A stretch of DNA of 64,000 nt from Chloroflexota bacterium (GTDB lineage: Bacteria; Chloroflexota; Limnocylindria; P2-11E), in NCBI GenBank assembly GCA_005881885.1, contig VBDX01000133.1, positions 15,461-79,460 on the forward strand, written 5' to 3'. Shown here piece after piece: positions 28,869 to 62,711 of the stretch; position 1 is the stretch's first letter, and every line of letters begins with the position of its first letter. The translations under genes were made by a program, and so were the position numbers. The notes under the pieces were generated by a model. It saw only the letters and a program-made list of their open reading frames with translations. It was not told the origin of the DNA and did no database searches.

Positions 28869-28872
28869 AGCT

Positions 28873-36685: not shown

Positions 36686-36695
36686 TTGGTCCGTA

Positions 36696-38487: not shown

Positions 38488-38502
38488 CGGTCCGGCCCGG
38501 GC

Positions 38503-46188: not shown

Positions 46189-46811
46189 GCGCGTGCCGCG
46201 AGGAGCGCCGCGGGGACGTCGACCGAGGATCCTCTGGCTCGGTTCAGAACGATGTAGGGCGGCGCCGCGAGGCTGAGCTTGCCGAGGGCCTGCTGGATCA
46301 GGGGTAGCGGTGTGGCTCCTTCGCGCAGTACGACGAAGAGCTGGTCGACCAGCGCGGCCCAGGGCAGCACGAACGTTTCGCCGGCAAGCACCGGCGGAAG
46401 GTCCACGATGACCGTCTCGAAGGAGACGGCCTCCTTGGCCACGAACGATGCGAGCCCCCGGAGGGTCGGCCTCGCGCCCATGCCGTCGCCGAGTGGCAGG
46501 AAGGCAACGCGCGAGGGGGCGTACCGGCGGATGCAGGCCGCGGCGTCGGCCCGGTCCGCAAGTAGCTCGGCCAGCCCAACGCTCGATTCGAGACGAGCGT
46601 CGCGTGTCAGCGAGGGATGGATCCAGTTCGCGTCGACGAGCAGCACGCTGCCCCTGCGCATCGCCGCGAGCGAAAGCGCCGTGCCGAGCGCGAGCGTGCT
46701 GACGCCCTCGCCGAGCAGGGCACTGGTGAAACCGATTGTGCGAAAGCCCATCGCATCGACGCGGCTGGCCAGCCCGTCGAACGTGGCCATGAGGCTCGCC
46801 GGTGCGCTCAT
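46185..46811 (-). CDS. CpsD/Wzc-type (BY-kinase/MinD-like) ATPase domain protein with a degenerate Walker A (GEGVST)
   Basis: 'FTSALLGEGVSTLALGTALSLA' in place of the canonical 'SxxPGEGKST'. Walker A' 'VLLVDANWIHPSL'. Walker B 'VIVDLPPVL'. ATG overlaps the Wzz-like stop (ATGA). Confidence 0.65.
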   Translation of the reverse strand: MSAPASLMATFDGLASRVDAMGFRTIGFTSALLGEGVSTLALGTALSLAAMRRGSVLLVDANWIHPSLTRDARLESSVGLAELLADRADAAACIRRYAPSRVAFLPLGDGMGARPTLRGLASFVAKEAVSFETVIVDLPPVLAGETFVLPWAALVDQLFVVLREGATPLPLIQQALGKLSLAAPPYIVLNRARGSSVDVPAALLAARA

Positions 46812-47848
46812 CCGCTCACCTCTCCGTTTCGCGCGCCGCCGTCCGCGAATGCGATCGCGGCGAGCGAGGTGCGCAGGTCACCAGGACTCGCGCCGCCACC
46901 CGCTCGCGTCACGCGGGGTACGGCCGCGAAGAGCCGGGCGGGTGCGAGCCGGCTGACATCGGCGGGTCCTGATACGTGCGCCGGAAGCAGCGTGCCGATG
47001 ACCACGAGGAGCGCGGCGAGGGCGCACCCCGCGGCGATCGCGACGGCGCCGATCATCGCGGCGGATCGAGTACCGCCTCGCGGCGAGGTCTCGACCTGTG
47101 GCTGGTCGACGACCTGGAACTCCATGCCGCTCACTGACAGGATGGCGGGCGCGAGGGCCGCTTGGTTGATGCGGCCGCGCAGGTCGCCGAGGCGGATCTG
47201 CGCGTAGTCGAGAGTCAGCCGGAGTTGATCCTTCAGATGCTGCTCGATATCGCTGAGCGCTCCGGGATGGCTCGCGTCGAACTCGTCGAGCGCGCGCTGG
47301 GCATCGAGCGCCTGGGCCTGGGCGACCTGGAGCTGCTTCTGGTAAAGCGTGTTCGTGATCGTCGTGAAGGTGGTACTCGCCTGCGCCACCCGATCCGCTC
47401 GAACAGCGAGGATGGCGTTGACCATCTCCGGTCCGAGCGGCGGATCGTGGGCCGCGAACGAGACGGTCAGCAGATTGTTCCCGTGTGTCTGGACGCGGAA
47501 GCTCTTCTGGACACCGGCCAGGAATTTCGTCTCGTCCGGCGCGGCTGCGAGCGCCGCGCGCAGGGAGGTCTGCCGGACCACGTCGCGAAGGAACTCCTTC
47601 GTCTGTAACAGCTGATTCAGCAGGTCAGCCTGCTGGGAAGCGGCCGTCTGAATGACCGTCGCATTCGGGTCGTCAGGGCTCGTCGTCGCCAATTCCGGCG
47701 AGGCCCGGAGCACCCAGATCGTGGCCTCGGACTCGAAGGTCGTCGCGTACTCCGTGTAGGCGGCGACGATCCCGGCTCCCCAGATGATCGCCAGGACCGC
47801 CCCGAGCAGCCAGCGATAGCGATGAGCAGTGGTGAGGTACGGCCGCAT
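46808..47848 (-). CDS. Polysaccharide co-polymerase (Wzz/CpsC-like chain-length determinant)
   Basis: N-terminal and C-terminal TM helices flanking a ~250-aa coiled-coil-rich periplasmic domain. Confidence 0.7.
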   Translation of the reverse strand: MRPYLTTAHRYRWLLGAVLAIIWGAGIVAAYTEYATTFESEATIWVLRASPELATTSPDDPNATVIQTAASQQADLLNQLLQTKEFLRDVVRQTSLRAALAAAPDETKFLAGVQKSFRVQTHGNNLLTVSFAAHDPPLGPEMVNAILAVRADRVAQASTTFTTITNTLYQKQLQVAQAQALDAQRALDEFDASHPGALSDIEQHLKDQLRLTLDYAQIRLGDLRGRINQAALAPAILSVSGMEFQVVDQPQVETSPRGGTRSAAMIGAVAIAAGCALAALLVVIGTLLPAHVSGPADVSRLAPARLFAAVPRVTRAGGGASPGDLRTSLAAIAFADGGARNGEVSG

Positions 47849-48002
47849 GACGGCGACGACCGTATCGGCGCCTCATTGAAGGAGTGTTAGTTGGGCCATT
47901 ATTTCCCGTCGGTCGCCTGGTCGGTCGGGGGGAGGCTCGGCCAGGACGGCCTCAGCAAGCGCTACACCCACCCTCAATGCCGCCGCCGCTCCATAGGCGA
48001 GC

Positions 48003-49028
48003 ATGCGAGCCGCCGACAACCCGACCGTTAGCGTCATCGTACCGACCTACAACCGTCGCACGCGGTTGGGCCGGCTCCTCGCGGCACTCGACAGGCAGCA
48101 TCGGTCCGGGGTCCGTTTCGAGGTCGTCATCACGGTAGACGGCGCAACGGACGGCACGGCCGAGATGCTCGCGCGCCTGCGGCCTTCCTTCCCGCTCGAG
48201 GTCATCAAGCGGGCGCAGGGCGGTCCGGCGGCGGCGCGGAACGCCGCGATCGCCGCGGCCACAGGCGAGGTGCTGCTGTTCCTCGACGATGACGTCGTCC
48301 CGCAGGACGGTCTCTTCGAGCGGCACCTGGCGGTCCATCGGCGCGACCCGCGCGCCGCCGCGGTCGGACGGATGAGCGCGCCGCCCGGAGCGGTGCTTCC
48401 GCCGTGGCTCGACTGGGAGGCCGCGCTGCTCGACCGGCATTACGACAGGATCCTGTCGGGTGTCATCCCCGTCGACTGGCGGATCTTCTTCACGGCGAAC
48501 GCATCGGTGCGCCGCGAGCACGCCGTCGCGGTCGGGTGCTTCGACGCGCGCTTCGTACGCGAGGAGGACCTCGAGTTCGCGCACCGGCTCGCGGATCGTG
48601 GCGTCGGGTTCCAGTTCATCTCCGACGCGGTCGTGCACCACGACCCGGACCGCACCCTCGCGGGCTGGCGGCATATGGCCTTCGAGCGCGGACGCCACGA
48701 CTACATGCTCGAGACCCAGCTCGGCCGGGCCGAGCGATCGATGCGCGACGAGTGGGAGCAGCGGCACGCCGTGAATCGTGCGCTGGCGCGCTACTGCGTG
48801 GGCCATCGGCGCCGCACGCAGGTCGTCGCCCGCGCGCTCGAGCACGCGATCACGTCGGCATTCCAGCGTTCGCGTCGCCTGCGCCTTCTGCTCTGCAGCG
48901 CGCTCTTCAACGTCATGTACTGGGAGGGGGTCGCGCAAGCCGCGGGACTCGGCGCCGAGATCTGGAACGCTTTTCTCGAACGGCCGAGCTACGGCGCCGT
49001 CACGAACTCGAGCAACGCGAAACCATAA
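48003..49028 (+). CDS. Glycosyltransferase family 2
   Basis: 'VSVIVPTYNR ... VVITVDGATDGT ... LFLDDDVVP' GT-A/DxD. Confidence 0.8.
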   Translation: MRAADNPTVSVIVPTYNRRTRLGRLLAALDRQHRSGVRFEVVITVDGATDGTAEMLARLRPSFPLEVIKRAQGGPAAARNAAIAAATGEVLLFLDDDVVPQDGLFERHLAVHRRDPRAAAVGRMSAPPGAVLPPWLDWEAALLDRHYDRILSGVIPVDWRIFFTANASVRREHAVAVGCFDARFVREEDLEFAHRLADRGVGFQFISDAVVHHDPDRTLAGWRHMAFERGRHDYMLETQLGRAERSMRDEWEQRHAVNRALARYCVGHRRRTQVVARALEHAITSAFQRSRRLRLLLCSALFNVMYWEGVAQAAGLGAEIWNAFLERPSYGAVTNSSNAKP

Positions 49029-50476
49029 CCGGCGAGGGTCAGGGTCGCGGCGTTCCCACCGGCGAGGCTCACAAGACTGGGCCCGTTCTCAAGAGGCGTG
49101 GTCGCATCGACCCGCCTCAGCGTCACCCCGATCACCGGCGGGAGACCCGAGATCGTCACTCGCACGGTGGCCGGAGATCCCCGTCCGCCCACCGCGCTGT
49201 CGCTATCTGCGCGATGGTTGACGACGAGCACGCGGACGTTCGCCGACCCCGGAGCTAGCGCGGCGAGGGTTTCAACCTCATCGAGGCTCGACGTGGCCGA
49301 GACGAGAACGCTTCCGGGCGGGAAATAGCGCGCGAGGTAGTAGTCACGCCAATACGGAAGGAGCGGCGCACCCGCGGCATCCAACAACGAGAACTGCCGA
49401 AGCGTCGGATGTACGAACTGGAACTGATAGACCGTATCGACGCCCGCTCGCGCGAAACGCGCGAATGCGCTGGCACCCCACGCGGCGCCGTACGCGGTCC
49501 ACGGGCGCGCCGCGGGGTCGTCGCCATCCCAGGCGGCGTTCACGTTGACCTCGGTGATCCAGATCGGCGTATCGCCGGCGAGCGCACGCACCCTCGCGAG
49601 GCCGCGGTCGATTCCGGCGAGCCCGCAGCAGGCCCCGTCGCCACTGAACAGGAACCGATCGGTCTGTGCGTTCTGCCAACCGCCGTAGGCGTGGAAGCTA
49701 ACGACGTCGGGCCGATGCCGAGCGCCCGATAGCACCGCGGGGAGATAGTCCGGGACCCGCGAGGTGACCGGGCCACCCGTGGTCGGGCCGACGAGCTTGA
49801 TGGACGGGTCCACCGCGAGCATTGCGTCGGCCGAGGCGTTCCACATGCCCACGTACTGCTCGGGGGAGAGGCCCGGGCCGGGCGGGCACGCGGAGTGGTG
49901 CTGGTCCGGTTCGTTCCAGAGCTCCCAGTACGTGGCGCGGTTCCCGGTCGCGGCGGGATTCAGGATCTGCCGCCCGTCCTCGGCCACGAACGAACCGGTG
50001 TTGTAGTACGCGACCAGCCGCGCGGCGTACGCTGCGAATTCGCCGAACGTGGGATCACGCAGCGTCCGGGTACCGCAGTCCCACATCCATTGCGGTGGGT
50101 ACGCGATCGTCATGAGGATCCGAGCTCCGGCGGCGCGTGCGTCGCCGACTATCAAGTCGAGGTTGGCGAAGTCCCAGTCGCCTTGCGTGAGTCCCGCCGG
50201 CATCACGAGGGGCAGCCCGGGATAACCATCCGTCGTCACATTGATGCGGATGATCGTGGGCGCGAGCGCGGCGAAGCGCGCGCGGGCCTCCCGGCTCCGA
50301 TCGAGACCGCCGGGCCACACGAACTGGGTGCCAAGATGCGTCCGCACCGGCCCCAGCTCGTTGTCCGCGCGCACCGCGACCGCGACGTCGGCCGACGAAG
50401 CCGGAAGGGACGTGGCGAAGGGTGCGGCCACGGCGATCGTGATCAAGCCGATCGCGACTACGAAAACGCGGCGCAT
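48989..50476 (-). CDS. Secreted clan GH-A glycoside hydrolase (GH39/GH5-like; PslG-type candidate)
   Basis: Signal peptide, 'YWELWNEPD' (acid/base NEP) and 'IWITEVN' (nucleophile TE) on a (beta/alpha)8 scaffold, C-terminal beta-sandwich. Confidence 0.65.
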   Translation of the reverse strand: MRRVFVVAIGLITIAVAAPFATSLPASSADVAVAVRADNELGPVRTHLGTQFVWPGGLDRSREARARFAALAPTIIRINVTTDGYPGLPLVMPAGLTQGDWDFANLDLIVGDARAAGARILMTIAYPPQWMWDCGTRTLRDPTFGEFAAYAARLVAYYNTGSFVAEDGRQILNPAATGNRATYWELWNEPDQHHSACPPGPGLSPEQYVGMWNASADAMLAVDPSIKLVGPTTGGPVTSRVPDYLPAVLSGARHRPDVVSFHAYGGWQNAQTDRFLFSGDGACCGLAGIDRGLARVRALAGDTPIWITEVNVNAAWDGDDPAARPWTAYGAAWGASAFARFARAGVDTVYQFQFVHPTLRQFSLLDAAGAPLLPYWRDYYLARYFPPGSVLVSATSSLDEVETLAALAPGSANVRVLVVNHRADSDSAVGGRGSPATVRVTISGLPPVIGVTLRRVDATTPLENGPSLVSLAGGNAATLTLAGYGFALLEFVTAP

Positions 50477-50503
50477 CAGCCGGACTTAGAGGACTGTGCG
50501 CGG

Positions 50504-50532
50504 ATTGAGCGCCGATTGACGGTGCATTGAAG
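50504..50532 (+). promoter_or_regulatory. Triple direct-repeat element ATTGAGC-gccg-ATTGACG-gtgc-ATTGAAG upstream of the sugar-transferase operon
   Basis: Exact 11-bp periodicity; the same heptamer family as at 26552, 53360, 54456 and 61354. Confidence 0.55.
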
Positions 50533-50621
50533 AGCGCCCGCCAGGGCCCGGCCCGACCGTGGGGAGCGTCGGGAAAACGTCATGGTCAGGCCGTACCGAT
50601 CCTCAATGGTGCGGGGCTTCC

Positions 50622-51395
50622 ATGCTCCTCGTGGCAGCGGACCCGATCGCTCTCCAGTCCACGATGCCAGCCCGTGCGGACGGCGCACGGCTTTCCGATT
50701 GGTCGGTTGCGGGAGCGCAGGCCGACGCACCTGCGCTCTCCGCCGTTGCTCAGGCACTCGGGGCGGCGGCCCGTCGCGAGACCTTCTACGCATTCTCCAA
50801 GCGAGCGCTCGACCTGATGATCGCCGCCGTGCTCCTTCTGGGACTCGTGCCGCTTTTCGCGCTGGTCGCTATCGCGATCCGCTTCGACGGACCCGGGCCC
50901 ATCTTCTACCGTGGCGAGCGGCTCGGTCGCTACGGCAGCCGCTTCAGTGTCGTCAAGTTCCGATCGATGCGCGCCGACGCGGATCCGAACTCGCATTGCG
51001 CATTCCTCCGGAGCCTGATGCAGCAGGGCACAACGTGCACCGTTTACAAGGTCCCCGACGATCCCCGGATCACGCGGGTCGGCGCCATCCTTCGCAAGAC
51101 GAGCCTCGACGAGCTGCCGCAGCTCTGGAATGTGCTCCGCGGCGAGATGAGCCTCGTCGGTCCCCGCCCGGACGTCCCTTACGCCGTCGCGGAGTACAGC
51201 GACTGGATCCACCGCCGGCTTCTCGTGAAGCCGGGGATCACGGGCTTGTGGCAGGTCAGCGGTCGCAGCCGCCTGAGTCCCCTCGAGATGTACCGCCTCG
51301 ATGTGGCGTACGTCGCCGCGGCGTCACTGGCGTTCGACCTGCGGATCCTCCTGCGCACCATCCCGGTCGTCCTCACCCGGGACGGAGCGGCCTAG
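50622..51395 (+). CDS. Polyprenyl-phosphate sugar phosphotransferase (bacterial sugar transferase, WbaP/CpsE C-domain type; initiating enzyme)
   Basis: '[18 protein letters not shown] ... [10 protein letters not shown] ... [21 protein letters not shown]'. Start uncertain (ATG 50622 or 50664). Confidence 0.8.
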
Positions 51396-51398
51396 GCG

Positions 51399-52199
51399 GT
51401 GAGCGTGGCGATCGCAGCGCCCGCCGCCGGACAGCGCGCCCGAAAGATCCGCAGGGTCCGCAACTCGGACATCCTGCTTGGCGTCGTCGCCAGGGCGGTC
51501 CGCAGATCGCTCAGCGATCCAGAGCTTCGCCGCCGACTGCTGAAGGAGATCTGGATCGCGCTCAAGCGCTCCGCCGCCCAGAACGTCAAAGCCGTCGAGC
51601 TCTCACGCCTCCGCGGCATCGAGGCCGTCAGGGTGGACGGACCGATCACTCGTCTTTGCCCACTGGTCCTGAGCGCGCTCGCAACGATCCTCGAGTGCGA
51701 GACGATCTTCGAGTTCGGGACATTCCGCGGCGAGACCGCGTGGCTCCTCGCGCACAATCTTCCGAAGGCGCGCATCTTCACCCTCGACCTGCCCGGACAG
51801 GATGCGCACGACCACGCCGCGCTCGAGCTCACCGACGGGCCCGAATACTTCACCACCTGGGACCGCGGCGGCCGCTTCCGGGGAACGCCGGAGGCCGAGC
51901 GGATCACGCAGGTCCTCGGCGATTCGGCGACATTCGACTTCGCCCCGTACAGCGGCAAGGTCGACCTCGTGTACATCGACGCGAGCCACAGCTACAGCTA
52001 CGTCAAGGCCGATACCGAATCGGCGTTCGGGATGCTCTCTGAGCTCGGAACGATCGTCTGGGACGATTACACGTACTACCCGGGCATCTACGCGTATGTG
52101 AACGAGCTCGCGCCCACCCTCGACCGCCCTGTCTACCACATCCTCGGTACGCGCCTCGCGCTCTACAGCCGTTGGGACATCGTGGTCCCCGACATGTGA
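51399..52199 (+). CDS. Class I SAM-dependent O-methyltransferase (TylF/Methyltransf_24-like)
   Basis: 'ETIFEFGTFRGETAWLLAHNL ... DLVYIDASHSYSYVKAD'. GTG start. Confidence 0.7.
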   Translation: MSVAIAAPAAGQRARKIRRVRNSDILLGVVARAVRRSLSDPELRRRLLKEIWIALKRSAAQNVKAVELSRLRGIEAVRVDGPITRLCPLVLSALATILECETIFEFGTFRGETAWLLAHNLPKARIFTLDLPGQDAHDHAALELTDGPEYFTTWDRGGRFRGTPEAERITQVLGDSATFDFAPYSGKVDLVYIDASHSYSYVKADTESAFGMLSELGTIVWDDYTYYPGIYAYVNELAPTLDRPVYHILGTRLALYSRWDIVVPDM

Positions 52200-53386
52200 C
52201 GGAAGCCGAGCCGCGCATTCTCGTTGTCCTCGGCACCCGGCCCGAAGCGATCAAGCTCGCTCCGGTCATCAACGCTCTGCGCGCGACGCCCGATGCGCTG
52301 AGCGTCGGGGTGTGTGTTACCGGTCAGCATCGCGAGATGTTGACGCCGATCCTCGAGCTCTTCGGGATCGTGCCGGACTACCAGCTCGGCCTCATGACGC
52401 CGAACCAAAAGCTAGCGCGGCTCACGTCGGCGATCCTCGACGAGATCACGCCGGTCCTCGATGCCTTCCGTCCCGATTGGGTCATCGTCCAGGGTGATAC
52501 GACGACAGCTCTTGCCGCATGCCTCGCCTCGTTCTACCAAGGCGTTCGCGTGGCTCACGTGGAGGCCGGCCTGCGCACGAACGACAAGCGCCGACCTTTC
52601 CCCGAGGAGGCGAATCGCCGCATCGTCGATACGCTCTCCGACCTGCACTTCGCTCCCACCGAACGCGCCCGGCGGAGCCTCCTCGCGGAAGGGACCAACC
52701 CAGCGACCGTGCACGTGACCGGCAACACGGTCATCGACGCGCTCTGCCAGACCAGCGCGCGCGAGTACGACGTCGGGTCCGGTCCTCTCGCCGGGGTCCC
52801 CTTCGATCGGCGCATCGTCCTGGTCACCGCTCATCGACGGGAGAGCTTCGGCCAGGGCATGATCGCGATCTGCCGCGCCCTCGCGCGGCTCGTCGACGAG
52901 GTGCCGGACGTTCAGGTCGTGTATCCCGTGCATCTCAATCCGAACGTGCGTGACCCGGTGCGAGAGCGACTGGGCGGCGATCCACGGATCAGTCTTCTCC
53001 CGCCACTCGACTATCAGGCGCTCGTTCATTTGATGCGCCGGGCCACGCTGATCCTGACCGACTCAGGGGGCATCCAGGAAGAGGCGCCGACCCTAGGAAA
53101 GCCGGTGCTCGTCCTCCGCGAGGTGACCGAAAGGCCGGAAGCGATCGAAGCCGGTTGCGCCCGACTCGTCGGCACCGACGCGAGCCGCATCGTGAGCGAG
53201 GCGCGACGGCTTCTCCAAGACCGTGGCGCCTACGACCGGATGGCGCGAGTCGTGAATCCATTCGGCGACGGCCGCGCGAGCGAACGCATCGTCGCTGTGC
53301 TGCGGTCGGCCGATGTCGCCGCTCGCTCGGCGGCACGGGAGACTACCTCGCGGCAAGGGATTGAGGCCGCCTTGACGCCGAATTGA
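52196..53386 (+). CDS. wecB: UDP-N-acetylglucosamine 2-epimerase (non-hydrolysing)
   Basis: 'RILVVLGTRPEAIKLAPV ... VHVEAGLRT ... PEEANRR ... VTGNTVIDAL'. GTG at 52196 overlaps the methyltransferase TGA (GTGA); ATG 52172 is an alternative. Confidence 0.85.
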   Translation: MTEAEPRILVVLGTRPEAIKLAPVINALRATPDALSVGVCVTGQHREMLTPILELFGIVPDYQLGLMTPNQKLARLTSAILDEITPVLDAFRPDWVIVQGDTTTALAACLASFYQGVRVAHVEAGLRTNDKRRPFPEEANRRIVDTLSDLHFAPTERARRSLLAEGTNPATVHVTGNTVIDALCQTSAREYDVGSGPLAGVPFDRRIVLVTAHRRESFGQGMIAICRALARLVDEVPDVQVVYPVHLNPNVRDPVRERLGGDPRISLLPPLDYQALVHLMRRATLILTDSGGIQEEAPTLGKPVLVLREVTERPEAIEAGCARLVGTDASRIVSEARRLLQDRGAYDRMARVVNPFGDGRASERIVAVLRSADVAARSAARETTSRQGIEAALTPN

Positions 53387-53388
53387 AG
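53360..53388 (+). promoter_or_regulatory. Triple direct-repeat element ATTGAGG-ccgc-CTTGACG-ccga-ATTGAAG upstream of secreted-protein paralog A (overlaps the last codons of wecB)
   Basis: Exact 11-bp periodicity. Confidence 0.55.
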
Positions 53389-53529
53389 ACTCGCAGCGCC
53401 GCCAGCGCGGTCGGAAGACCCCGGCCGCAAGAAGTAACGCCGTGCCTCAGCGCTCCTCAACGCCCCGGCTTTGTCATCAGACGCGACGGCCAGGGTGCCG
53501 GTATTTGCCGTTGGAACGAGGAGATCTGA

Positions 53530-54441
53530 ATGAAGACTTCGCTGCTGCGCCGCCTTAGTCCGTTCGCAATCGTCGCGGTCGTCCTGCTCCAGCTAACCGT
53601 TGGTGCGCGACCCGCCGCCGCGGCGCCAGGTGCCGTGATCGCCGACGTCGTCGTGCCCTTCGGAGACGATGGAACGCTCTGGCCCGTGGGCATCTCATCC
53701 AGCGTCGCCTTTGACGGAAAGTATCTCTACTACGCCGAGTACAGCGGTCCGATCCTGCATCGCATCGACGTGCCCCCGGCGGGCGGGCCGACCCCGGCGA
53801 CGAACAAGATAGACATGCCGATCGTCGGGATGCACGCCGGAGCGATGTCGCTCGCCTACGACCGCGGCCGCGACATGTTCTGGGCGATCGGTGGCGACGG
53901 ACTCTCGGTCTATCTCCTCAGCAAGACCGGCATCGCAACGCTCATGTTCACGATCAACGCGGCGACCGACCGCCCCGGCTATCAGCCCACGACCTACGCG
54001 ACAGAGACCAAGCTCGCATACGACCGGTCCGACGACACGATCTGGTACGCGCCGGACGCCAATTCGCGCATCTTCCACTACCGGGCGTTTGGGGACACTC
54101 TCGGCTTCGCCCAGCTCGTCGCCGGGTCGCCATTCTTGGACGTCAGCGTGCCGCCGAACGACATGACACCGCAGTGCGGATACAGCATCGTGAGCGGGGT
54201 CGCGGTCGGTGGTCGCGACCTCTTCCTGGACATCGCGGGCTGTCCCTACTACTTCGAATATTCCAAGACCGGGACGAAGATCGGTTGGTTCCCTCTCGCG
54301 GGCACCGCCGCTGGCGACGTGGAATGCGACAACGTGAGCTACGGCGTGTCCGTGCTGTGGGTGAAGGACGCGTGGGCCGGTCACTTCCGGGCGTACGAGC
54401 AGCCCTCGGCGGGCGCGTGTGCCTTCGGCGGCGGGCTCTGA
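53530..54441 (+). CDS. Secreted protein of unknown function, beta-propeller-like (paralog A)
   Basis: Signal peptide, strong GGAGA RBS. Recurrent blade-like units 'VAFDGKYLYY', 'LAYDRGRDMFWA', 'KLAYDRSDDTIWY', 'DANSRIFHY'. 60-70% identical in blocks to the gene at 61470. Confidence 0.6.
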   Translation: MKTSLLRRLSPFAIVAVVLLQLTVGARPAAAAPGAVIADVVVPFGDDGTLWPVGISSSVAFDGKYLYYAEYSGPILHRIDVPPAGGPTPATNKIDMPIVGMHAGAMSLAYDRGRDMFWAIGGDGLSVYLLSKTGIATLMFTINAATDRPGYQPTTYATETKLAYDRSDDTIWYAPDANSRIFHYRAFGDTLGFAQLVAGSPFLDVSVPPNDMTPQCGYSIVSGVAVGGRDLFLDIAGCPYYFEYSKTGTKIGWFPLAGTAAGDVECDNVSYGVSVLWVKDAWAGHFRAYEQPSAGACAFGGGL

Positions 54442-54455
54442 CCCGCCCTTCGCGC

Positions 54456-54484
54456 ATTGAGCGCTCGTTGACGCTGGGTTGACC
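54456..54484 (+). promoter_or_regulatory. Triple direct-repeat element ATTGAGC-gctc-GTTGACG-ctgg-GTTGACC upstream of the 979-aa secreted protein
   Basis: Exact 11-bp periodicity. It overlaps the TTG used as the ORF start in the track, which argues for a later true start. Confidence 0.55.
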
Positions 54485-54580
54485 GGAATGGGCAAAGAGC
54501 GGCGCTATCGCGAGGCGCGTTCCGAAAGGTCATGCCGTCGCCGCAGCGCTCCTCAATCCGCGACGTGTTTGATCCCACCC

Positions 54581-57418
54581 GTGCGCGGAGATCTCCGGCA
54601 TCGGCTCGCGCTGATCCTCGTCACGGCGATGGTCGGTGTATACCTCTACGCCGCGGAGCCGTCACCGGCGACGACGGCCCTTGGCGCCGACAATCCGATC
54701 GTCGTTGAGAACCAGTTCCCGGGATCGAACGCGTGGCTTCCGGGATCGTCCATCGCCGACGATGCGGCCGGACAGATCAAGGGCTACGCCTCGGCGACCA
54801 GCGTCGCTCAGGGACAGAGCATCAGCCTGTTCGTCACGGTCAGCCCGGCCCAGACCTACACGATCGACTTCTACCGGCTCGGCTACTACGCCGGCGCCGG
54901 TGGCCGGCTTCGTCTGCAGACCGGCCCGCTCAACGGCGTCACGCAGGCCCCGTGCGGTGCGGACTCGACCACGGGCCTCATCGAGTGCAACTGGCCGCCG
55001 AGCTACACGCTGACCATCCCGAGCGATTGGACGAGCGGCGTCTACATCGTCAAGCTGACGAACTCCCTCGGATATCAGAACTACGTCATGTTCGTCGTCA
55101 AAGACGGGCGCCCGGCGCCGTACCTCTACCAGCAGGCCGTCCTCACCGACCAGGCCTACAACAACTACCCGAACAATCACGTGACCGGGAAGAGCCTCTA
55201 CAGCTTCAATAGCTACGGGCCGAACACGGTCGCCGGCGAAACGCGGGCGGTCAAAGTCTCGTTCGATCGTCCCTACGCGGACTACGGCTTTCCAGAGGTG
55301 GATGCCATCGAGTTCATCCGCTGGATCGAGCGTTCTGGTTACGACGTCACGTACTCGACGAATGTCGACACGCATGCGAATGGTTCAGCCCTCCTGACTC
55401 ACAAGGCCTTCATGTCGATCGGCCACGACGAGTACTGGTCGAAGCCGATGTTCGACGCGGTCCAGGCCGCCCGCGACGCGGGGGTTGGTCTGGCGTTCTT
55501 CGGAGCGGACGCGGTCAGCGTGCAGGTGCGAATCGAGTCTGCGACCGACGGCGAACCTAACCGCGTGGTGGTCTGCTACAAGAGCGCGGCCCTCGACCCG
55601 GTGCAGGGTCCGACGACCACGGTCGCGTGGCGCAGCGCACCGGTGAATCGTCCCGAACAGGCACTCCGGGGGATCCAGGACACCTTCCACGCGATCGTGA
55701 ACTCGAACGTGGATTACGTGGTCAACAACAGCTCTCACTGGATCTATGCCGGGACCGGCTTCAAGGACAACGATGTGGTGCCGGGGATCGTCGGCTACGA
55801 GAGCGACCGCTTCATGACCGGGTTCCCCGCTCCGAACTCGACGAACCAAACGCTCTTGTCGCATTCGCCGTTCACCAACAACGAGGGCGGCGCCGAGTAC
55901 CAGAACTCCTCCATCTACCAGGCCCCGAGCGGCGCATGGGTCTTCTCGTCCGGCACGATGTCGTGGAGCTGGGGCCTGGACAGCTTCTGGCACGGACGCG
56001 CAGACGCCCGGATCCAGCTAACGACGACCAACCTCCTCAACGCGTTCACCGCCGCTCCCGCCCCCACACCCACTCCGACGCCAACACCTACTCCAACCCC
56101 GACACCTACTCCCACGCCGACGCCTACTCCGACACCGACGCCAACTCCGACGCCAACTCCGACGCCGACACCTACCCCGACGCCGACACCTACTCCCACA
56201 CCGACGCCACCACCGAGCGGCGTCCACGATCTTCGGGTGACGGCCGCGGCGACCACGACTGCGGGCCAGTCCTTCACCGTCGGTGTGACCGCCGAGGACG
56301 CGCTGGGCAGCCCGGTCACGTCTTACAGCGGCACCGTTCACTTCGCCAGCAGCGACACGTCGTCGGGGGTCGTGCTGCCAGCCGACTCGACCTTGACGAA
56401 CGGTCAGGGCACCTTCTCGCTGACCCTGACCAAGGCCGGATCGCAAACGGTCACCGTTTCCGACGCCGCGAACGCGCTCACCACGACCGCGACAATGGGC
56501 GTCACTGCCGCGGCGGCCAACAGTCTCGCGCTCGCCACCGCGGCCAGCCCGAAGGCCGGGACGCCCTTCCAGTTCACCGTGACCGCGAAGGACTCGTTCG
56601 GCAACACCGACACGTCCTACGCCGGGACGGTGCACTTCACGAGCAGCGATAGCGCGAGCGGCGTGTCGCTTCCGGCTGACGGCAGCCTGACGAACGGTCA
56701 GCAGACCTTCTCGGCGACGCTGGTCACGCTCGGCTCGCAGACCATCACGGCCACCGGCGCGACGATCACCGGAACGCTTTCGGTCACCGTCAGCCCGGGG
56801 AACGCGTCGAAGCTCGTGCTTGCCACCAGCGGCACTCCGACCGCCGGTACGGCTTTCCAGTTCACCGTGACCGCGCAGGACCCCTTTGGTAACACGGCCA
56901 CGTCCTACACCGGGACGGTGCACTTCACGAGCAGCGACACGTCCTCGGGCGTCGTGCTCCCGGCCGACTCGACCTTGACGAACGGCCAGCGGACGTTCTC
57001 GGCGACGCTCATCAGGGCCGGTGCCCAGACGATCACCGCGACGGACAAAGTCACCTCGAGCATCACCGGGAACCTCAATGTCTCGGTGCGGCCCGGCGCC
57101 GCCGCGGTCGTCATCGTCGCGGCGCCAGCGACCGTCGTGGCGGGCCAGTCCTTCAACTTCACGGTCACGCTGAAGGACGGCTTCGGGAACGCGGCGACCG
57201 GCTACACCGGGACGATGCACTTCACGACCAACGACATCTCGCCGCTCGTCGTGTTGCCAGCGGACTACGCCTTCAATGGCGGCGACGCCGGAGCGCACAC
57301 CTTCTCGGCGACCCTCTGGACGCCGCCGAGCCGGCCGATCACCGCGACGGACACCGTAAACGCGAGCCTCACCGGCACGGCGGCGGTAGGAGTGACGCTG
57401 GTGCCACCGCTCCCGTAG
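54581..57418 (+). CDS. Large secreted protein: N-terminal ~500-aa domain (possibly N,N-dimethylformamidase-large-subunit-like), (PT)n linker, and four tandem ~95-aa bacterial Ig-like (Big-type) repeats
   Basis: Likely GTG start at ~54581 giving the signal peptide 'RGDLRHRLALILVTAMVGVYLYAA'. Repeats of 'GTPFQFTVTAKDSFGNTDTSYAGTVHFTSSD ... LTNGQ.TFSATL'. The family assignment of the N-domain is from memory only. Confidence 0.6.
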   Translation: MRGDLRHRLALILVTAMVGVYLYAAEPSPATTALGADNPIVVENQFPGSNAWLPGSSIADDAAGQIKGYASATSVAQGQSISLFVTVSPAQTYTIDFYRLGYYAGAGGRLRLQTGPLNGVTQAPCGADSTTGLIECNWPPSYTLTIPSDWTSGVYIVKLTNSLGYQNYVMFVVKDGRPAPYLYQQAVLTDQAYNNYPNNHVTGKSLYSFNSYGPNTVAGETRAVKVSFDRPYADYGFPEVDAIEFIRWIERSGYDVTYSTNVDTHANGSALLTHKAFMSIGHDEYWSKPMFDAVQAARDAGVGLAFFGADAVSVQVRIESATDGEPNRVVVCYKSAALDPVQGPTTTVAWRSAPVNRPEQALRGIQDTFHAIVNSNVDYVVNNSSHWIYAGTGFKDNDVVPGIVGYESDRFMTGFPAPNSTNQTLLSHSPFTNNEGGAEYQNSSIYQAPSGAWVFSSGTMSWSWGLDSFWHGRADARIQLTTTNLLNAFTAAPAPTPTPTPTPTPTPTPTPTPTPTPTPTPTPTPTPTPTPTPTPTPTPTPTPPPSGVHDLRVTAAATTTAGQSFTVGVTAEDALGSPVTSYSGTVHFASSDTSSGVVLPADSTLTNGQGTFSLTLTKAGSQTVTVSDAANALTTTATMGVTAAAANSLALATAASPKAGTPFQFTVTAKDSFGNTDTSYAGTVHFTSSDSASGVSLPADGSLTNGQQTFSATLVTLGSQTITATGATITGTLSVTVSPGNASKLVLATSGTPTAGTAFQFTVTAQDPFGNTATSYTGTVHFTSSDTSSGVVLPADSTLTNGQRTFSATLIRAGAQTITATDKVTSSITGNLNVSVRPGAAAVVIVAAPATVVAGQSFNFTVTLKDGFGNAATGYTGTMHFTTNDISPLVVLPADYAFNGGDAGAHTFSATLWTPPSRPITATDTVNASLTGTAAVGVTLVPPLP
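56060..56215 (+). repeat. Hexanucleotide tandem repeat (ccgacg/ccaacg/cctact units) encoding a (Pro-Thr)n linker
   Basis: ~26 consecutive PT dipeptides. Similar DNA repeats recur at 62405-62700, 59690-59770, 33290-33460/33780-34000 and 10720-10830. Confidence 0.7.
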
Positions 57419-57596
57419 GGCGGCGAGCACAGCCAGGCACGCTCGGAATGAAGCCTGAGTGAGAGGACGCCGACGAGTTCAGCGGCCCAGAGCCAGCGCC
57501 TGGCTGGAAGCTCGCCTTGTTCTCCGGGTAGAGCGTATCGACGATCCCCTCACTTTGGCCCTCGGCCGAACGCCTGTATCCTTGGCTCTACGCGGG

Positions 57597-58334
57597 GTGG
57601 GTGCTGCCGAGAACGATGCCGGTCAGCGCGTCGGGATCCTCGTTGTCGATGACGACCGGGAGCTCGTCGACCTTCTTGCCTTCCTTATGGAGCAATCCGG
57701 GCTGACCCCGCTCTGCGCGACCGAACCCGTCGCCGCGCTCGAGCTCTTCGACAAGGAAGACCCGTACGTGGCGGTCGTCGATCTCAACCTCAAGCCGTGG
57801 GATGGCTTCGAGCTGCTTGCGGAGCTCCGCCGGCGCAGCGCGCGGATCCCGATCCTCGTCCTCACCGGGCGCGGCAGCGAGGACGACAAGGTGCGAGCGC
57901 TCGACATGGGCGCGGATGACTACGTCGTCAAGCCTTTCTTGCACCGCGAGCTTGTGGCCCGGATCCGAGCGCTTGCACGGCGCGCGCAGATGGACCGCAA
58001 TGTCATCGAGCCGACCATCCTGGAGGCGGGTCCGCTCCGCCTCGACCTCAAAGAGCGTGGGCTCCAGATCGACGGAGCCGACGTCCGCCTCACCGGGACC
58101 GAGTTCCGGCTCCTGGAATACCTGATGCGCCACCTCGACAGCGTCGTCTCCACGACCTCGCTGGCGCGGCACGTGTGGGGCTATGACGACCCCCCGGCGC
58201 GTGACGTGGTGCGAGTGACGGTGCACCGGCTGCGCCGCAAGCTTGGCGACGATGGCGAGAGCCCGCGTTTCGTCCACACCGTTCCGGGCGTCGGACTCAA
58301 GCTTCGGTCCACACCGTCTCAACGGGCGAGCTAG
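57597..58334 (+). CDS. OmpR/PhoB-family response regulator (receiver + winged-helix)
   Basis: 'GILVVDDDREL ... VVDLNLKPWDGFELL ... YVVKPF' receiver domain, then an OmpR-type wHTH. GTG start ~57597; the track ORF (57459) has a GC-rich extension. Confidence 0.8.
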   Translation: MGAAENDAGQRVGILVVDDDRELVDLLAFLMEQSGLTPLCATEPVAALELFDKEDPYVAVVDLNLKPWDGFELLAELRRRSARIPILVLTGRGSEDDKVRALDMGADDYVVKPFLHRELVARIRALARRAQMDRNVIEPTILEAGPLRLDLKERGLQIDGADVRLTGTEFRLLEYLMRHLDSVVSTTSLARHVWGYDDPPARDVVRVTVHRLRRKLGDDGESPRFVHTVPGVGLKLRSTPSQRAS

Positions 58335-58468
58335 CCCCCGCTGTAACGGCATTGTGTCGGCTGCCGGGCCGGTGTAACGCCTTTGTTCCCTAACGCTTAA
58401 CGCATCGAGGCATCCCATTTGCGGTTTCTACAGGCCGTGGCTCGGTGAGCCGCGACTCGCATGGGGGT

Positions 58469-59281
58469 ATGGATTTCATGATCAAGATCCTGCTGGTCGA
58501 AGACGATCTCGACATGCTCGACCTGACCGCGTATGTCCTTCGGAGAGAGCGATTCGTCGTGATGGAGGCCTCGGACGGCGCAGCGGCCCTGCGGCGATGG
58601 AGAGCCGACCGTCCGGACCTCGTCGTCCTCGACCTTGGTCTGCCGAGCCTCGATGGGTTCGAGGTCCTGCGTCGCATCCGTGCCGACGACGAGACGCCGA
58701 TACTCGTCCTCACCGGTCGGCGCGACGCCCAGGACATTTTGCGGGTCTTCAACCTGGGATCCGATGACTTCCTCGCCAAGCCGTTCGAGTTCAAGGAGCT
58801 CATCGCACGGATTCGCGCGATCCTGCGCCGCGTCCAAACATCCCCGAAGGAGAACACCGAGCCCCGCGTCGAAGTCGACGGGCTCAAGCTCGACCCCGAG
58901 GCATACGAGGTGGCGTGGAGAGATGCCTACGTCCGACTCACGCCCACCGAGTTCCGCATCCTCTACCTCCTCGTGACGAATGCCGGACACGTGGTCTCCG
59001 CCAATCGCCTCTACACGTACGTGTGGGGCAGCGAAGGCGGCGACGCGAACGCGTTGCGATCGCACATCAGCCACCTGCGGCGAAAGCTCGAGACGACGGG
59101 GGAAACGCCGGGCACGATCTCGTCGGTGCCGGCGATCGGCTACGTCTACCGCAAAGTCGCGCAGCCCGCGACCGTCCCGGTGGAGACGACCGCGATCGCA
59201 CCATCGGCACCGAGTTCGAAAGACGACCGGGTCCCGACCCCTACGGCGACGGCGCAGGTCGCTCCCGCGGCATCCGGCTAG
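58469..59281 (+). CDS. OmpR/PhoB-family response regulator (second, adjacent)
   Basis: 'KILLVEDDLDML ... LVVLDLGLPSLDGFEVL ... FLAKPF' receiver + wHTH, with a C-terminal Pro/Thr/Ala tail. No histidine kinase nearby. Confidence 0.8.
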   Translation: MDFMIKILLVEDDLDMLDLTAYVLRRERFVVMEASDGAAALRRWRADRPDLVVLDLGLPSLDGFEVLRRIRADDETPILVLTGRRDAQDILRVFNLGSDDFLAKPFEFKELIARIRAILRRVQTSPKENTEPRVEVDGLKLDPEAYEVAWRDAYVRLTPTEFRILYLLVTNAGHVVSANRLYTYVWGSEGGDANALRSHISHLRRKLETTGETPGTISSVPAIGYVYRKVAQPATVPVETTAIAPSAPSSKDDRVPTPTATAQVAPAASG

Positions 59282-59431
59282 CGGGCGCGGTCGAGCGCCG
59301 CGAGCGGCGGGAAGGCGAGGTCGGTTCACGACGACGCGCTTCCCGGCCCGGCAGCAGCCTCGAGTCAGGAGAACACGCGGTGGGCCGTGTGAAGGGAAAC
59401 GAAAGCGAGAGCCCGGCCCTCGCCCTTTCCG

Positions 59432-59505
59432 TGGGCTCTGCGTGGCTCGAACACGCGACCTCAGCGATGTCAACGCTGCGCTCTAACCAGCTGAGCTAAG
59501 AGCCC
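59432..59505 (-). tRNA. tRNA-Val (anticodon GAC), 74 nt, CCA not encoded
   Basis: Minus-strand sequence GGGCUCU-UA-GCUC-AGCUGGUUA-GAGC-G-CAGCG-UUGACAU-CGCUG-AGGUC-GCGUG-UUCGAGC-CACGC-AGAGCCC-A folds as a canonical cloverleaf with anticodon GAC. Confidence 0.85.
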
Positions 59506-59571
59506 GAGAACCAAAGTCTACTTCAAAGATCGTCTTCTGATCCCGGCCAGTAACGGGCGCGCGCCGGCCCG

Positions 59572-60198
59572 ATGTTTGAATCGCGCCACATGCGTCATCT
59601 CGCCGCAGGCATCGCGCTAACGATCGCTCTCACGGCTTGCGGATCGAGTACGGCGTCCGTGCCACAACCCGTGCCGACCCCCGCGGCGCCGACCGTCACC
59701 CCGTACCAGACGATGACGCCGACTCCGATCCCGCCGACACCGGCTCCGACGCCGACACCGACGCCAGGCCCCACGCTCTCCTCGGTGGCGGCCGAAAAGT
59801 ACTTCCATCCGCTCGCGGGGTACGAGCTCGTCGTCCCGCCCCCAGAAGTCGCGACGCAGCTGCAGGCCCTCGTCTCGGCCCCCGAGGTGACCGACATCGC
59901 CACCGGCGTTGCGCTGCGCTTGGTGACCCGGAACGGCGATGCAGCGAACATGGCCGTCCTCAGCCTCTCGCTGCTGCCGTCGTACGCTGCGCTCCCCGGA
60001 GTCCTCGACGAATTCGCCGCGAGCTACTCGCAGGCCGCGGTCGAGCGCTTCACACTCGCCGGCCATCCGGCGCTCTACTACCAGACCGCCCCGAAGAGCC
60101 TCGTGTGGGCCCACCGCACGTACATCCTCGTGGTCTACGGCACCGACCGAGCGGCGATGACCCGGTTGGGCGAAGCACTCATCGCATCGAACCCGTAG
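59572..60198 (+). CDS. Lipoprotein of unknown function with a Pro/Thr-rich linker
   Basis: Lipobox 'LTACGSS', then '[34 protein letters not shown]', then a ~130-aa domain. Confidence 0.5.
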   Translation: MFESRHMRHLAAGIALTIALTACGSSTASVPQPVPTPAAPTVTPYQTMTPTPIPPTPAPTPTPTPGPTLSSVAAEKYFHPLAGYELVVPPPEVATQLQALVSAPEVTDIATGVALRLVTRNGDAANMAVLSLSLLPSYAALPGVLDEFAASYSQAAVERFTLAGHPALYYQTAPKSLVWAHRTYILVVYGTDRAAMTRLGEALIASNP

Positions 60199-61288
60199 CG
60201 CTGGTCGCGCCGAACATCCGCAGGCTCTCCGTCGGAGCATCCTTCGCGAAACACACCACCCTGAACGCGCCCAACCCATTCGGATCGAGCAACGCGTCGA
60301 TCGCCGAGCGCCGGCTCGCCGCGCGCAGTTGCTCGATCGGGATCGACGGTCGCGCCGTGGCCTCGCGGATGCCGAGCGCGAGCAACACCTCGCGCTGCAT
60401 CGCGGATCCCGCGAAGCGAAGTCCCGCGCCTTCCGCGGCACGGCGGATCGCCGTGAAGTCAACGCTCGCGGTCAGGTCGTGGCGGCCAGGCTCGGCCAGC
60501 GGATCGGAGATGAGGCGATGACCAGCGAACCCGCGGATCGTGCCCGCGCCGTCGCGCGTCAGGAGATCGGTCTCCTCGCCACCGTAGTCGACGAAGACGA
60601 CGTAGCCCGACACCAGGGCGCCCGCGAGGCTTGCGACCCAGCCTTCAGCCGCGGGGCTGGTCTCCCACCGGCCGCCGAGGGGCACGGATTCGGGGACACG
60701 CCAGCGCAGATCCTGGCTGGGCACGCGTAAGACCTCCACGAGCGCCCCGCTCTGTTCGCCGACGAAGACCTCGCGCACACCCTCGGGCGTTCTGATCAAG
60801 ACGTGGACCGGAAACGCGTCGAGGACCTCATTCGCGAACAGGACGCCCTTGATGGGCGCGAGGCTGTGAGCGACGGACGCCCATCGCAGGTCACGCCCCT
60901 CGAGCGCGAGCGATTGCTGCCCGCGCATGCGCGGCGAGACCTCGACGATCGCGGGCCGCACCCCTCGAACGGCGTCGGATCGTTCGCGCTCCAGCGCGGA
61001 GAGCAGATCGCGCATGAGGATGCCGCGTCCCGCACCTGCTTCGACGAGATCCCAGACCGCCGGCCGTCCCATGTGCGACCAGAGATCAGAGACGCCGCGC
61101 GCCAGCGATTTCCCGAACGCTGGGCCCAGGTCCGCCGAGGTGACGTAATCGCCGTCGAATCCGATCGACGCCCGAGTCGTGTAGTAACCATCCTCCGGGT
61201 CGTAGAGGGCCGCCTCCATGTAGTCGGCGAATGTGATCGCTCCACCCGAGCGAATCCGCGCGACGATCCGATCGCCGAGCTTCCCCAC
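60179..61288 (-). CDS. MidA/NDUFAF7-like class I SAM-dependent methyltransferase (DUF185)
   Basis: 'EAGAGRGILMRDLL' SAM motif and 'FANEVLDAFPVH' typical of MidA. Confidence 0.65.
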   Translation of the reverse strand: MGKLGDRIVARIRSGGAITFADYMEAALYDPEDGYYTTRASIGFDGDYVTSADLGPAFGKSLARGVSDLWSHMGRPAVWDLVEAGAGRGILMRDLLSALERERSDAVRGVRPAIVEVSPRMRGQQSLALEGRDLRWASVAHSLAPIKGVLFANEVLDAFPVHVLIRTPEGVREVFVGEQSGALVEVLRVPSQDLRWRVPESVPLGGRWETSPAAEGWVASLAGALVSGYVVFVDYGGEETDLLTRDGAGTIRGFAGHRLISDPLAEPGRHDLTASVDFTAIRRAAEGAGLRFAGSAMQREVLLALGIREATARPSIPIEQLRAASRRSAIDALLDPNGLGAFRVVCFAKDAPTESLRMFGATSATGSMR

Positions 61289-61353
61289 GCGGTCGAGGGT
61301 ATATGGCAGCTAAAGGCGGCGCGGGATCCGTAAAGATCCGGTAACGCTCATGG

Positions 61354-61382
61354 ATTGAGCATCCGTTGACGTCGAGTTGACG
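61354..61382 (+). promoter_or_regulatory. Triple direct-repeat element ATTGAGC-atcc-GTTGACG-tcga-GTTGACG upstream of secreted-protein paralog B
   Basis: Exact 11-bp periodicity; GTAACGC lies 13 nt upstream. Confidence 0.55.
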
Positions 61383-61469
61383 CTCGTGACGTCGGGGTGC
61401 TCTCTAATGCGAAAAGCCGCTCAAAACGTATGCGGGCGGCGCAACGCCGCTCAACCCGGGTCCGCTCGA

Positions 61470-62711
61470 ATGACTGAGGTGCAGCCGACAAGGGACCGCC
61501 ACGCCCGCCGAATCGGATTCATTCCGATCATGGCGCTGGTCCTGATGCAGCTCGCGGTGTTCGGCGCGCGGCCCGCAGCCGCCACCGGTGGCGATCTCAT
61601 CGCCGACGTCATGGTGAACGAGCCGTACCCAGACTACGTCGCTCCGAGCGTCGCATTCGACGGGCGGTACCTGTACCACACCGGGTACGGCACATCAGTC
61701 CTCCATCGGATCAACGTGCCGCCGAGGGGGACTTCCGGCAACGGGACGGGCCAGGTCGACGTCCCGATCACCGGCGCGTCCTCGGGGATCATGACGCTCG
61801 CCTATGATGCCGGCCGCGACGCCTTCTGGGCCGTAAGCGGCGACGGGCTATCCATCTACATGCTGAGCAAGACCGGTGCGGCCACGCTTGCCTTCCGGAT
61901 CGATCCGAACACTGACAGGCCCGGCTATCAGCCTGTCGGCAACTACCCGAACGAAGTCAAGCTCGCGTACGACCGCGCCGACGACACCATCTGGTACAGC
62001 AACGACGCTAACTCGCGCATCTTCCATTACCAGACGTTCGCCGAGGCAGACGGGACCGCGGCCCTCGTCCCAGGGACGCCATACATCGACATCAACGTCC
62101 CGCCGAACTCGATGGATGCGGAGTGTGGCTATAGCCAGAGCAGCGGCGTGACCGTGGGAGGAGCCCACATCTTCATCACGGTCGCCGGCTGCAACTACCT
62201 GTTCGAGTTCACGAAGACCGGCGGCAAGGTGGCCTCGTACGCCTACCACCCGTATCCCGGAACGGGGCCCCAAGATCTCGAGTGCGACAACCTGAGCTAT
62301 GGCGTAGCCGTTTTCTGGATCCGCGACACGTATGACGGCCACATCCGCGCGTTCGAACAGCCCACATCGACATCCTGTCTCTACGGCGGTGGCACCGCCG
62401 CACGTCCGACCCCCACTCCCACGCCGACGCCTACTCCTACACCCACGCCGACCCCGACTCCGACACCCACACCAACGCCAACGCCTACCCCGACCCCCCC
62501 AACACCAACGCCAACGCCTACCCCGACCCCCACGCCGACCCCGACGCCCGCACCAACACCGACGCCAACACCGACGCCAACACCGACGCCGACGCCAACC
62601 CCAACCCCGACTCCTACGCCAACACCGACGCCGACGCTGCCACTTCCGACCCTTCCGCCGCTTCCGACGCCCCCGTTGCCTACGCTCCCGCCGCCACCTC
62701 CGTTGCCCTAA
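61470..62711 (+). CDS. Secreted beta-propeller-like protein (paralog B of 53530..54441) with a ~100-aa C-terminal (PT)n/proline-rich tail
   Basis: '[11 protein letters not shown]', '[12 protein letters not shown]', '[13 protein letters not shown]', 'DANSRIFHY', '[16 protein letters not shown]' colinear with paralog A. Tail '[11 protein letters not shown]...[19 protein letters not shown]'. Confidence 0.6.

Follow-up and report, generated by a model that had tools for sequence, protein, structure and literature searches.

Two predicted exported five-bladed beta-propellers of a Limnocylindria envelope-polysaccharide regulon belong to a previously unannotated protein family

Introduction

Two genes for paralogous secreted proteins, here called A and B, flank a group of surface-protein and regulator genes beside a polysaccharide locus of a Chloroflexota bacterium (lineage Limnocylindria; assembly GCA_005881885.1, contig VBDX01000133.1, positions 15,461 to 79,460). 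Which family do these proteins belong to, and what would they do outside the cell? In the following, "the window" denotes this whole stretch of 64,000 nucleotides (nt), and positions are counted from its first letter. A sequence-only reading of the window had described A and B as propeller-like proteins that could not be placed in a named family and, from their co-regulation with polysaccharide genes, had suggested extracellular glycan binding, lyase or processing roles. Our analysis gives good support to A and B as exported, disulfide-stabilised five-bladed propellers in a conserved envelope-polysaccharide regulon, where export and disulfides are read from conserved sequence features. Judged by this context, they probably bind or process the sugar polymer of the adjacent locus.

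Results

A and B are old, colinear paralogs with predicted signal peptides

The features of the two genes are listed here; protein lengths are in amino acids (aa).

53530..54441, + strand: gene of paralog A, 303 aa, with GGAG 6 nt 5′ of the ATG
53530..53622, + strand: predicted signal peptide of A, residues 1-31, predicted cleavage between AAA and APG (sequence reading and a modelled helix 2-24)
53623..54438, + strand: five-bladed beta-propeller of A
61470..62711, + strand: gene of paralog B, 413 aa counted from the ATG at 61470
61470..61583, + strand: predicted signal peptide of B, residues 1-38, predicted cleavage between AAA and TGG (sequence reading, aligned to that of A)
61584..62393, + strand: five-bladed beta-propeller of B, 55% identical to A
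62394..62708, + strand: proline-rich C-terminal tail of B, (PT)n / LPxLP, about 105 aa

Both open reading frames (ORFs) were found at these coordinates and show a coding-type distribution of GC over codon positions (GC3 0.85 for A; window GC 67%). In a BLASTP comparison, A and B are 55% identical across 301 colinear residues (E=5e-118), and the alignment holds every motif on which their paralogy had been proposed. When all six reading frames of the window were searched with a hidden Markov model of the propeller domain, A and B were the only copies. The TTG at 61377 falls within the operator described below and is an unlikely start codon, which leaves the ATG at 61470 as the credible start of B. 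Across other metagenome-assembled genomes (MAGs), the A and B types pair up as orthologs. The B orthologs there are 69-72% identical to the window protein, compared to 55% between A and B. The duplication therefore appears to be old, with both copies maintained.

The N-termini of both proteins carry a basic n-region, a hydrophobic h-region and an A-x-A site (GARPAAA before APG in A, GARPAAA before TGG in B), as expected from the signal peptides assigned earlier. Residues A29, A31, A32 and G34 around the predicted cleavage site are conserved in the family alignment. With n-, h- and c-regions conserved in this way, A and B would be exported by the Sec pathway. The tail of B begins after GGG, the domain end common to both proteins.

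The model of A is a five-bladed beta-propeller

An AlphaFold2 model of A, built from a 51-sequence alignment, is all-beta with a mean predicted local distance difference test score (pLDDT) of 90.1 and a predicted template modelling score (pTM) of 0.85; residues 2-24 form one helix. The strand order gives five four-stranded antiparallel blades round a central channel, at about residues 58-97, 105-141, 160-196, 223-255 and 261-290, and the ring is closed by the N-terminal strand 36-41, which completes blade 5. The blade-like units quoted in the sequence-only reading correspond to the hairpin of strand A, turn and strand B in each blade, with the pattern h-A-[FY]-D-x(2-4)-h-[FWY]-h. This pattern accounts for the invariant Asp that recurs per blade (D62, D111, D165, D267) and for the Trp residues W118, W172 and W277.

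Among 110 diverse representatives, the residues kept at a level of at least 84% are G34, D62/G63, D111, R114, W118, D165, D169, H183, S222/G223, K246, D263, E265, C266, D267, W277 and C297. Cys266 and Cys297 occur together in 109 of the 110 sequences. The pair Cys216/Cys238 is complete in 86 sequences and missing altogether in 19, and just 5 have one Cys without the other. Because the Cys pairs co-occur, and together with the signal peptide, we expect two disulfides (216/238 and 266/297) in an extracytoplasmic protein. Placed by strand order alone, D62, D111, D165 and D267 lie at one end of the innermost strands and could ring a structural cation. Such a cation ring is known for type I cyclases (PMC7948796). 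By the same kind of placement, S222, D263 and E265 would lie at the opposite channel opening. The indel-rich loops of the family are found around residues 42-57 and 256-260.

The domain lies beside known propeller families but inside none of them

Two profiles were used in the searches: A1 represents the close family, and A2 is a broad, more diverse profile. At a threshold as loose as E<=1, A and B had no match among the Pfam and NCBIfam models, and A1 had 0 matches at E<=10 among the PDB sequences. These profile searches assigned neither protein to a named family, characterised housekeeping families included, in agreement with the earlier failure to name one.

The nearest sequence relation is to YjiK/CarP (PF06977, 'SdiA-regulated'; PDB 3QQZ), a family whose own molecular function is, to our knowledge, not known. 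A and B themselves do not match PF06977 at E<=1. Among 65 distant relatives, 11 match it below threshold (best E=4.8e-6; P0049 with 11.6 bits against a cut-off of 21), and SGL and Phytase-like models are each matched by 9. The A2 profile reached 3qqz in hmmsearch with E=0.008. In hhalign, A2 and E. coli YjiK align at 14% identity with a probability of 7.4% and E=0.0047, in one colinear stretch at profile positions 87-216, roughly blades 2-4. In contrast to YjiK/CarP, the window family has two conserved Cys pairs, a polysaccharide-locus context and members in Chloroflexota and archaeal lineages. For CarP, Ca2+-responsive expression and a role in Ca2+ homeostasis have been described (PMC10574481).

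The type I glutaminyl cyclases (PDB 3MBR, 3NOK, 3NOL) resemble the model in fold, at about 10% identity. Their Pfam model Glu_cyclase_2 matches neither A nor B at E<=1 and is absent from the list of the 25 families that the 65 relatives matched most often (72 families were matched overall). No cyclase chain in the PDB was reached by A1 or A2 at E<=10. The genomic context and the surface-stalk fusions of the window family are not cyclase-like either. Five-bladed glycoside hydrolases (GH) of the GH43, GH62 and GH32 types score lower against the model than the cyclases and YjiK. Members of the GH43/GH62 type would match the models of these families and place an Asp/Glu/Asp catalytic triad in their central cavity; no sequence-model match was obtained, and the window proteins were not assigned to this type. 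The best PDB sequence match of A2 is an archaeal S-layer YVTN propeller (E=5e-6), at repeat level only.

Two further systems invite comparison. RbmC and Bap1 of Vibrio cholerae are secreted beta-propeller proteins that are encoded beside exopolysaccharide genes, are co-regulated by response regulators and bind the polymer as well as surfaces. They have eight-bladed propellers and beta-prism lectin domains and are likened to the window proteins by function only, with no homology expected. The receptor-binding protein Gp45 of Staphylococcus phage phi11 (PDB 5EFV) carries a five-bladed propeller 'platform'. Unlike A and B, Gp45 is a trimeric phage tail protein and lacks a signal peptide, and no relation to them was detected at the sequence level. 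This propeller is cyclase-like and has been proposed as the GlcNAc-recognising module, with sugar binding modelled only (PMC4901313). We conclude that the propeller domain of A and B represents a family without earlier annotation. It stands beside YjiK/CarP and the type I glutaminyl cyclases as a distant relative of both, with a likeness that is mainly one of fold.

The family is widespread and forms the N-terminal head of larger proteins

A word-indexed search returned 214 close homologs, nearly all of them 'hypothetical protein'; the few with a named source come from Candidatus Limnocylindria MAGs. A scan of species-representative genomes, which used A1 and reached close relatives only, gave 19 loci, all from soil MAGs, 16 of them labelled Chloroflexi or Candidatus Limnocylindria. 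The remaining three (L020, L021 and L026; 49-60% identity) are labelled Acidobacteria, Candidatus Eisenbacteria and Candidatus Udaeobacter, and these off-phylum labels may be binning errors. For L026, which has the full Limnocylindria-type synteny and the operator, this is probably the case. The context scan found no further syntenic gene in L020 and L021. The exact protein A occurs in 88 blocks of a metagenome collection, with a critical-zone sample and a JGI metagenome among the sources. An exhaustive profile search extended the family to 724 cluster representatives (clusters of 50% identity) at E<=1e-3 and 438 at E<=1e-10. Two distant members are labelled as archaeal MAG proteins (Nitrosopumilaceae and Thermoplasmatota). 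The distant members sit on contigs of about 2 kb, and the gene contexts reported here cover the close relatives.

In the wider family, the domain is almost always N-terminal, right behind the signal peptide, and it is predicted to be extracytoplasmic throughout. It is followed by Big_1, Big_3_5, Big_7, fn3, SLH, LPXTG, PKD, choice-of-anchor P or PxKF modules or by a type IX secretion system (T9SS) tail. The NCBIfam label 'choice-of-anchor P' was considered for the propeller and rejected, as it maps to residues 400-670 of a distant relative. A quarter of the close homologs have an added C-terminal domain, a putative beta-sandwich (about 220 aa in the 519-aa relatives). The best match of this domain is a phage receptor-binding head, a weak match that we take as a hint and not as evidence. 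Out of 120 close homologs, 12 have Pro-rich tails and 72 have no Pro/Thr-rich region. The tails of window B and of P0073, P0083, P0102, P0114, P0116 and P0117 all finish in a motif that recurs among them, (PT)n-LLPxPLPLPT(I/F)R(I/V)GF(G/R) or LPPLPPLP, with no transmembrane segment after it. This motif may be a cell-wall association or sorting element.

Both genes stand behind a triple TTGA operator

The operator has the sequence ATTGAG-N6-TTGACG-N4-RTTGA (core TTGA-N7-TTGAC-N6-TTGA), that is, three TTGA half-sites with an 11-bp period. The window holds 5 exact matches, at 26552, 50504, 53360, 54456 and 61354, against 0.00 expected. All are on the + strand and before + strand genes. The copies next to A and B, with the boxes that follow them, are:

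53360..53386, + strand: operator copy before A, ATTGAGGCCGCCTTGACGCCGAATTGA, 144 nt 5′ of the start of A
53434..53461, + strand: promoter-like boxes before A, GTAACG-N16-CTCAAC
54456..54482, + strand: operator copy before the gene of a DMFA2_C protein with immunoglobulin (Ig)-like repeats
61354..61380, + strand: operator copy before B, ATTGAGCATCCGTTGACGTCGAGTTGA, 90 nt 5′ of the B ATG
61427..61455, + strand: promoter-like boxes before B, CGTATG-N17-CTCAAC, ending 14 nt before the B ATG

Each propeller gene is thus preceded by its own operator copy, as had been claimed. The copy before A is shared with the 3′ end of the UDP-GlcNAc 2-epimerase gene, where it covers the final codons and the stop; the TGA of this stop (53384-53386) is also the TGA of the third TTGA half-site. 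The operator is also found before the equivalent operons of other MAGs, where protein identity is no higher than 50-60%, and the arrangement before the B-type ortholog of L015 is the same. The A-type gene of L004 has no operator of its own. The proposed co-regulation with the polysaccharide genes is borne out by this operator, which they have in common with the propeller genes and which is kept in other genomes.

Regulators of the OmpR type prefer direct repeats spaced about 11 bp, which is why we read the triple repeat as an OmpR-type upstream activator site; direct repeats of about this period do lie 5′ of the target promoters, as in an OmpR/PhoB-type regulon. The most likely readers of the operator are the adjacent pair of OmpR-type response regulators listed below, a pairing suggested by their position.

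A second conserved block follows the operator in the window (26622-26700, 50576-50640, 53434-53490, 54527-54600 and 61427-61490) and is present too in L001, L004, L009, L014, L015 and L026. An invariant CTCAA(T/C) box lies 68-71 nt 3′ of every operator copy and has a (G)TCATG box 16-17 nt 5′ of it; other copies read GTCATG-N17-CTCAAT. After the CTCAA(T/C) box, CATG and CGTG boxes follow at fixed spacing. A sigma-70 consensus scan of 53300..54700 found no site, and the boxes are therefore called promoter-like by their spacing only. Two other explanations of the block were considered. A structured leader RNA, suggested by the possible pairing of GTCATG with CGTGAC, was rejected: RNAalifold gave 0 pairs in 12 copies and there was no Rfam match. 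A leader peptide was rejected as well, with a CTCAA reading frame that varies between copies and an early stop in one copy. The block is probably the core promoter or contains further protein-binding sites of the regulon.

The propeller genes accompany a complete Wzx/Wzy-type locus

The remaining features of the locus and its surroundings are:

26552..53386: Wzx/Wzy-type polysaccharide locus of the same regulon, with operator copies at 26552 and 50504
54456..57418 including the operator, + strand: secreted DMFA2_C+Ig protein (gene callers start at 54629)
57459..58334 and 58445..59281, + strand: pair of OmpR/PhoB-type response regulators (Response_reg and Trans_reg_C), candidate operator binders
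59432-59505, - strand: tRNA gene (Rfam 66.7 bits), between the second regulator gene and the ORF at 59572..60198
59572..60198: PT-rich lipoprotein-like ORF, 208 aa

The locus at 26.5-53.4 kb encodes a GFO-type oxidoreductase, a Wzx flippase, a GH5+Ig protein, GT1/4, PMT_2, Wzy_C, GT2, a GH39-like protein, Bac_transf, MT24 and Epimerase_2. We read it as a complete Wzx/Wzy-type locus with Bac_transf as the priming enzyme, MT24 as a methyltransferase and Epimerase_2 as the UDP-GlcNAc 2-epimerase. On its 3′ side follow, in this order, A, the DMFA2_C+Ig gene, the two OmpR-type regulators, the tRNA, the PT-rich lipoprotein-like ORF, a divergent Methyltransf_28 gene and B. The DMFA2_C+Ig protein owes its name to an N,N-dimethylformamidase beta-like domain (DMFA2_C, E=6.6e-107) and to four Ig-like repeats of about 97 aa each; it also has a (PT)n linker.

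In most of the 19 genome loci, and in metagenome loci, a propeller gene is found with Bac_transf, MT24, Epimerase_2, DMFA2_C+Ig, the regulator pair and MT28. The regulator pair is syntenic with propeller genes in many loci, and MAGs with proteins of no more than 50-60% identity show the gene order of the window again. The epimerase gene of L004 ends 3 nt before the start of the A-type gene, and the B-type gene there adjoins Methyltransf_28 as in the window. The C-terminus of B-type proteins varies. Window B and its L004 ortholog P0116 have a PT/LPPLP tail; the L015 and L016 proteins have 'HFTSxDxSSGVxLP' Ig-like repeats, as on the window DMFA2_C protein.

Some further observations concern the neighbours. 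L004 carries an SGNH-lipase+fn3 protein in place of the DMFA2_C+Ig protein. Directly 5′ of the DMFA2_C+Ig gene, L017 (2222-4137) and L018 (579-2434) have tandem propeller paralogs with 66-68% mutual identity. Two adjoining ORFs beside the Wzy_C gene (46185-47848, - strand; 208 and 346 aa) have no Pfam match, and L001 and L004 have ORFs without Pfam match at the same place, alike by size and position. A PMT_2-type GT-C glycosyltransferase and the Wzy_C protein are encoded at 36817-38487 and 44510-46039. Together with the many (PT)n linkers, they raise the possibility of protein O-glycosylation instead of, or besides, free polymer synthesis.

Discussion

Of the earlier interpretation of this DNA, the paralogy, signal peptides, blades, tail and co-regulation have stood; its glycan role is drawn from context only. 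We lean slightly towards propellers that act extracellularly on or with the glycan of the cluster. Taken separately, binding of this glycan is a tentative proposal and catalysis on it appears rather doubtful. As the best overall explanation, we give roughly even chances to exported propellers of an envelope regulon with a glycan-recognising head. Outside the cell, the propeller would serve as a ligand-binding head, in the manner of a lectin or matrix protein, for the polysaccharide that the neighbouring genes produce. In this scheme A would act in free form, and B would be tethered to the surface of the cell through its (PT)n/LPxLP tail. In the proposed regulon, the triple TTGA operator would act from 68-71 nt 5′ of the promoter-like boxes, before the Wzx/Wzy genes, the DMFA2_C+Ig gene and both propeller genes, and would be read by the two adjacent response regulators. 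The logic may be compared with that of RbmC/Bap1 of Vibrio or of the phage phi11 propeller. A recognising head is favoured because the domain is an N-terminal head on Ig-like stalks and anchors across the family, and because divergent copies, two or three per genome, have been retained, with loops rich in indels. It is also favoured because the GlcNAc module proposed for the phi11 protein is a cyclase-like five-bladed propeller (PMC4901313). The weak match between the domain added in a quarter of the close homologs and a phage receptor-binding head is a hint in the same direction. The glycan ligand is the most inferential part of this explanation.

Some observations speak for rival readings. 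The conserved His, Ser and acidic residues make a catalytic role on the polymer a serious rival. Other observations fit structural surface proteins: the S-layer propeller as best PDB sequence match of A2, the PT-rich linkers and tails in B, GH5+Ig, DMFA2_C+Ig and the 208-aa lipoprotein-like ORF, the PMT_2 and Wzy_C proteins in the cluster, and the SLH domains on some relatives. In the catalytic case, the secreted polysaccharide would be trimmed or modified by the propeller, acting as a glycanase, a lyase or a de-esterifying enzyme, and the propeller would found a carbohydrate-active family. In other exopolysaccharide loci, PslG, AlgL, BcsZ and ExoK have such a trimming or modifying role. However, Pfam, NCBIfam and PDB searches gave no sequence similarity to any CAZy family, GH-type propellers score clearly below the cyclases and YjiK, GH5 and GH39-like proteins are already encoded in the locus, and the head-stalk-anchor architecture with multiple divergent paralogs is more typical of binding modules. 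We regard an enzyme as unlikely for these reasons. Structural S-layer- or sheath-like glycoproteins are less likely, and we would give this explanation little credence. Here the propellers would be substrates and not partners of the polymer, glycosylated by the cluster through Bac_transf priming, the Wzy_C protein as O-oligosaccharyltransferase and the PMT_2 GT-C enzyme, with the other PT-rich secreted proteins as substrates likewise. Paralog A and the 72 of 120 close homologs without any Pro/Thr-rich region argue against it. Moreover, the Wzx flippase and Wzy_C pair equally describes a standard polymer pathway, the S-layer match stems from the generic blade motif, and no self-assembly feature is evident.

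The fold itself suggests two other readings, both less likely than an enzyme. A CarP/YjiK-like envelope propeller for cation (Ca2+) handling or envelope-stress signalling under two-component control, whose proximity to polysaccharide genes would reflect a mere common envelope regulon, seems improbable to us. Its hhalign probability is only 7%, and A and B miss PF06977 at E<=1. The operator also drives glycosyltransferase and epimerase operons, and the propeller gene can be translationally coupled to the epimerase, both of which point to the polysaccharide pathway itself. Less probable still is a divergent member of the type I (plant/bacterial) glutaminyl cyclases, which would turn the N-terminal Gln or Glu of exported proteins into pyroglutamate. 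Fold similarity speaks for it, but identity is about 10%, A, B and the profiles found no cyclase model or chain, and the predicted mature N-termini are Ala (A) and Thr (B), not Gln. The conserved context is without anything related to N-terminal processing, and two to three paralogs per genome on adhesin-type stalks would be odd for a cyclase.

The exported propeller with a glycan-recognising head is thus the reading that we carry forward. The findings overturn or contradict no current view. They delimit a fairly large unannotated family and give a concrete Pfam-style domain definition. It is conceivable, if rather unlikely, that the domain founds a functional class of five-bladed propeller, either a carbohydrate-active enzyme family or an exopolysaccharide-binding matrix lectin. 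Such a class would serve a surface glycan of Limnocylindria and related uncultured soil bacteria and archaea, with free (A) and tethered (B) forms and a dedicated two-regulator switch. Limnocylindria are abundant, uncultured soil Chloroflexota, and we know of no information about their cell surface. In this lineage, the domain is tied to a Wzx/Wzy polysaccharide locus and a clear cis-regulatory signature, which provides a candidate surface-glycan partner or enzyme. The compact regulon of operator, promoter boxes and two regulators is usable for annotation and for reading soil metatranscriptomes.

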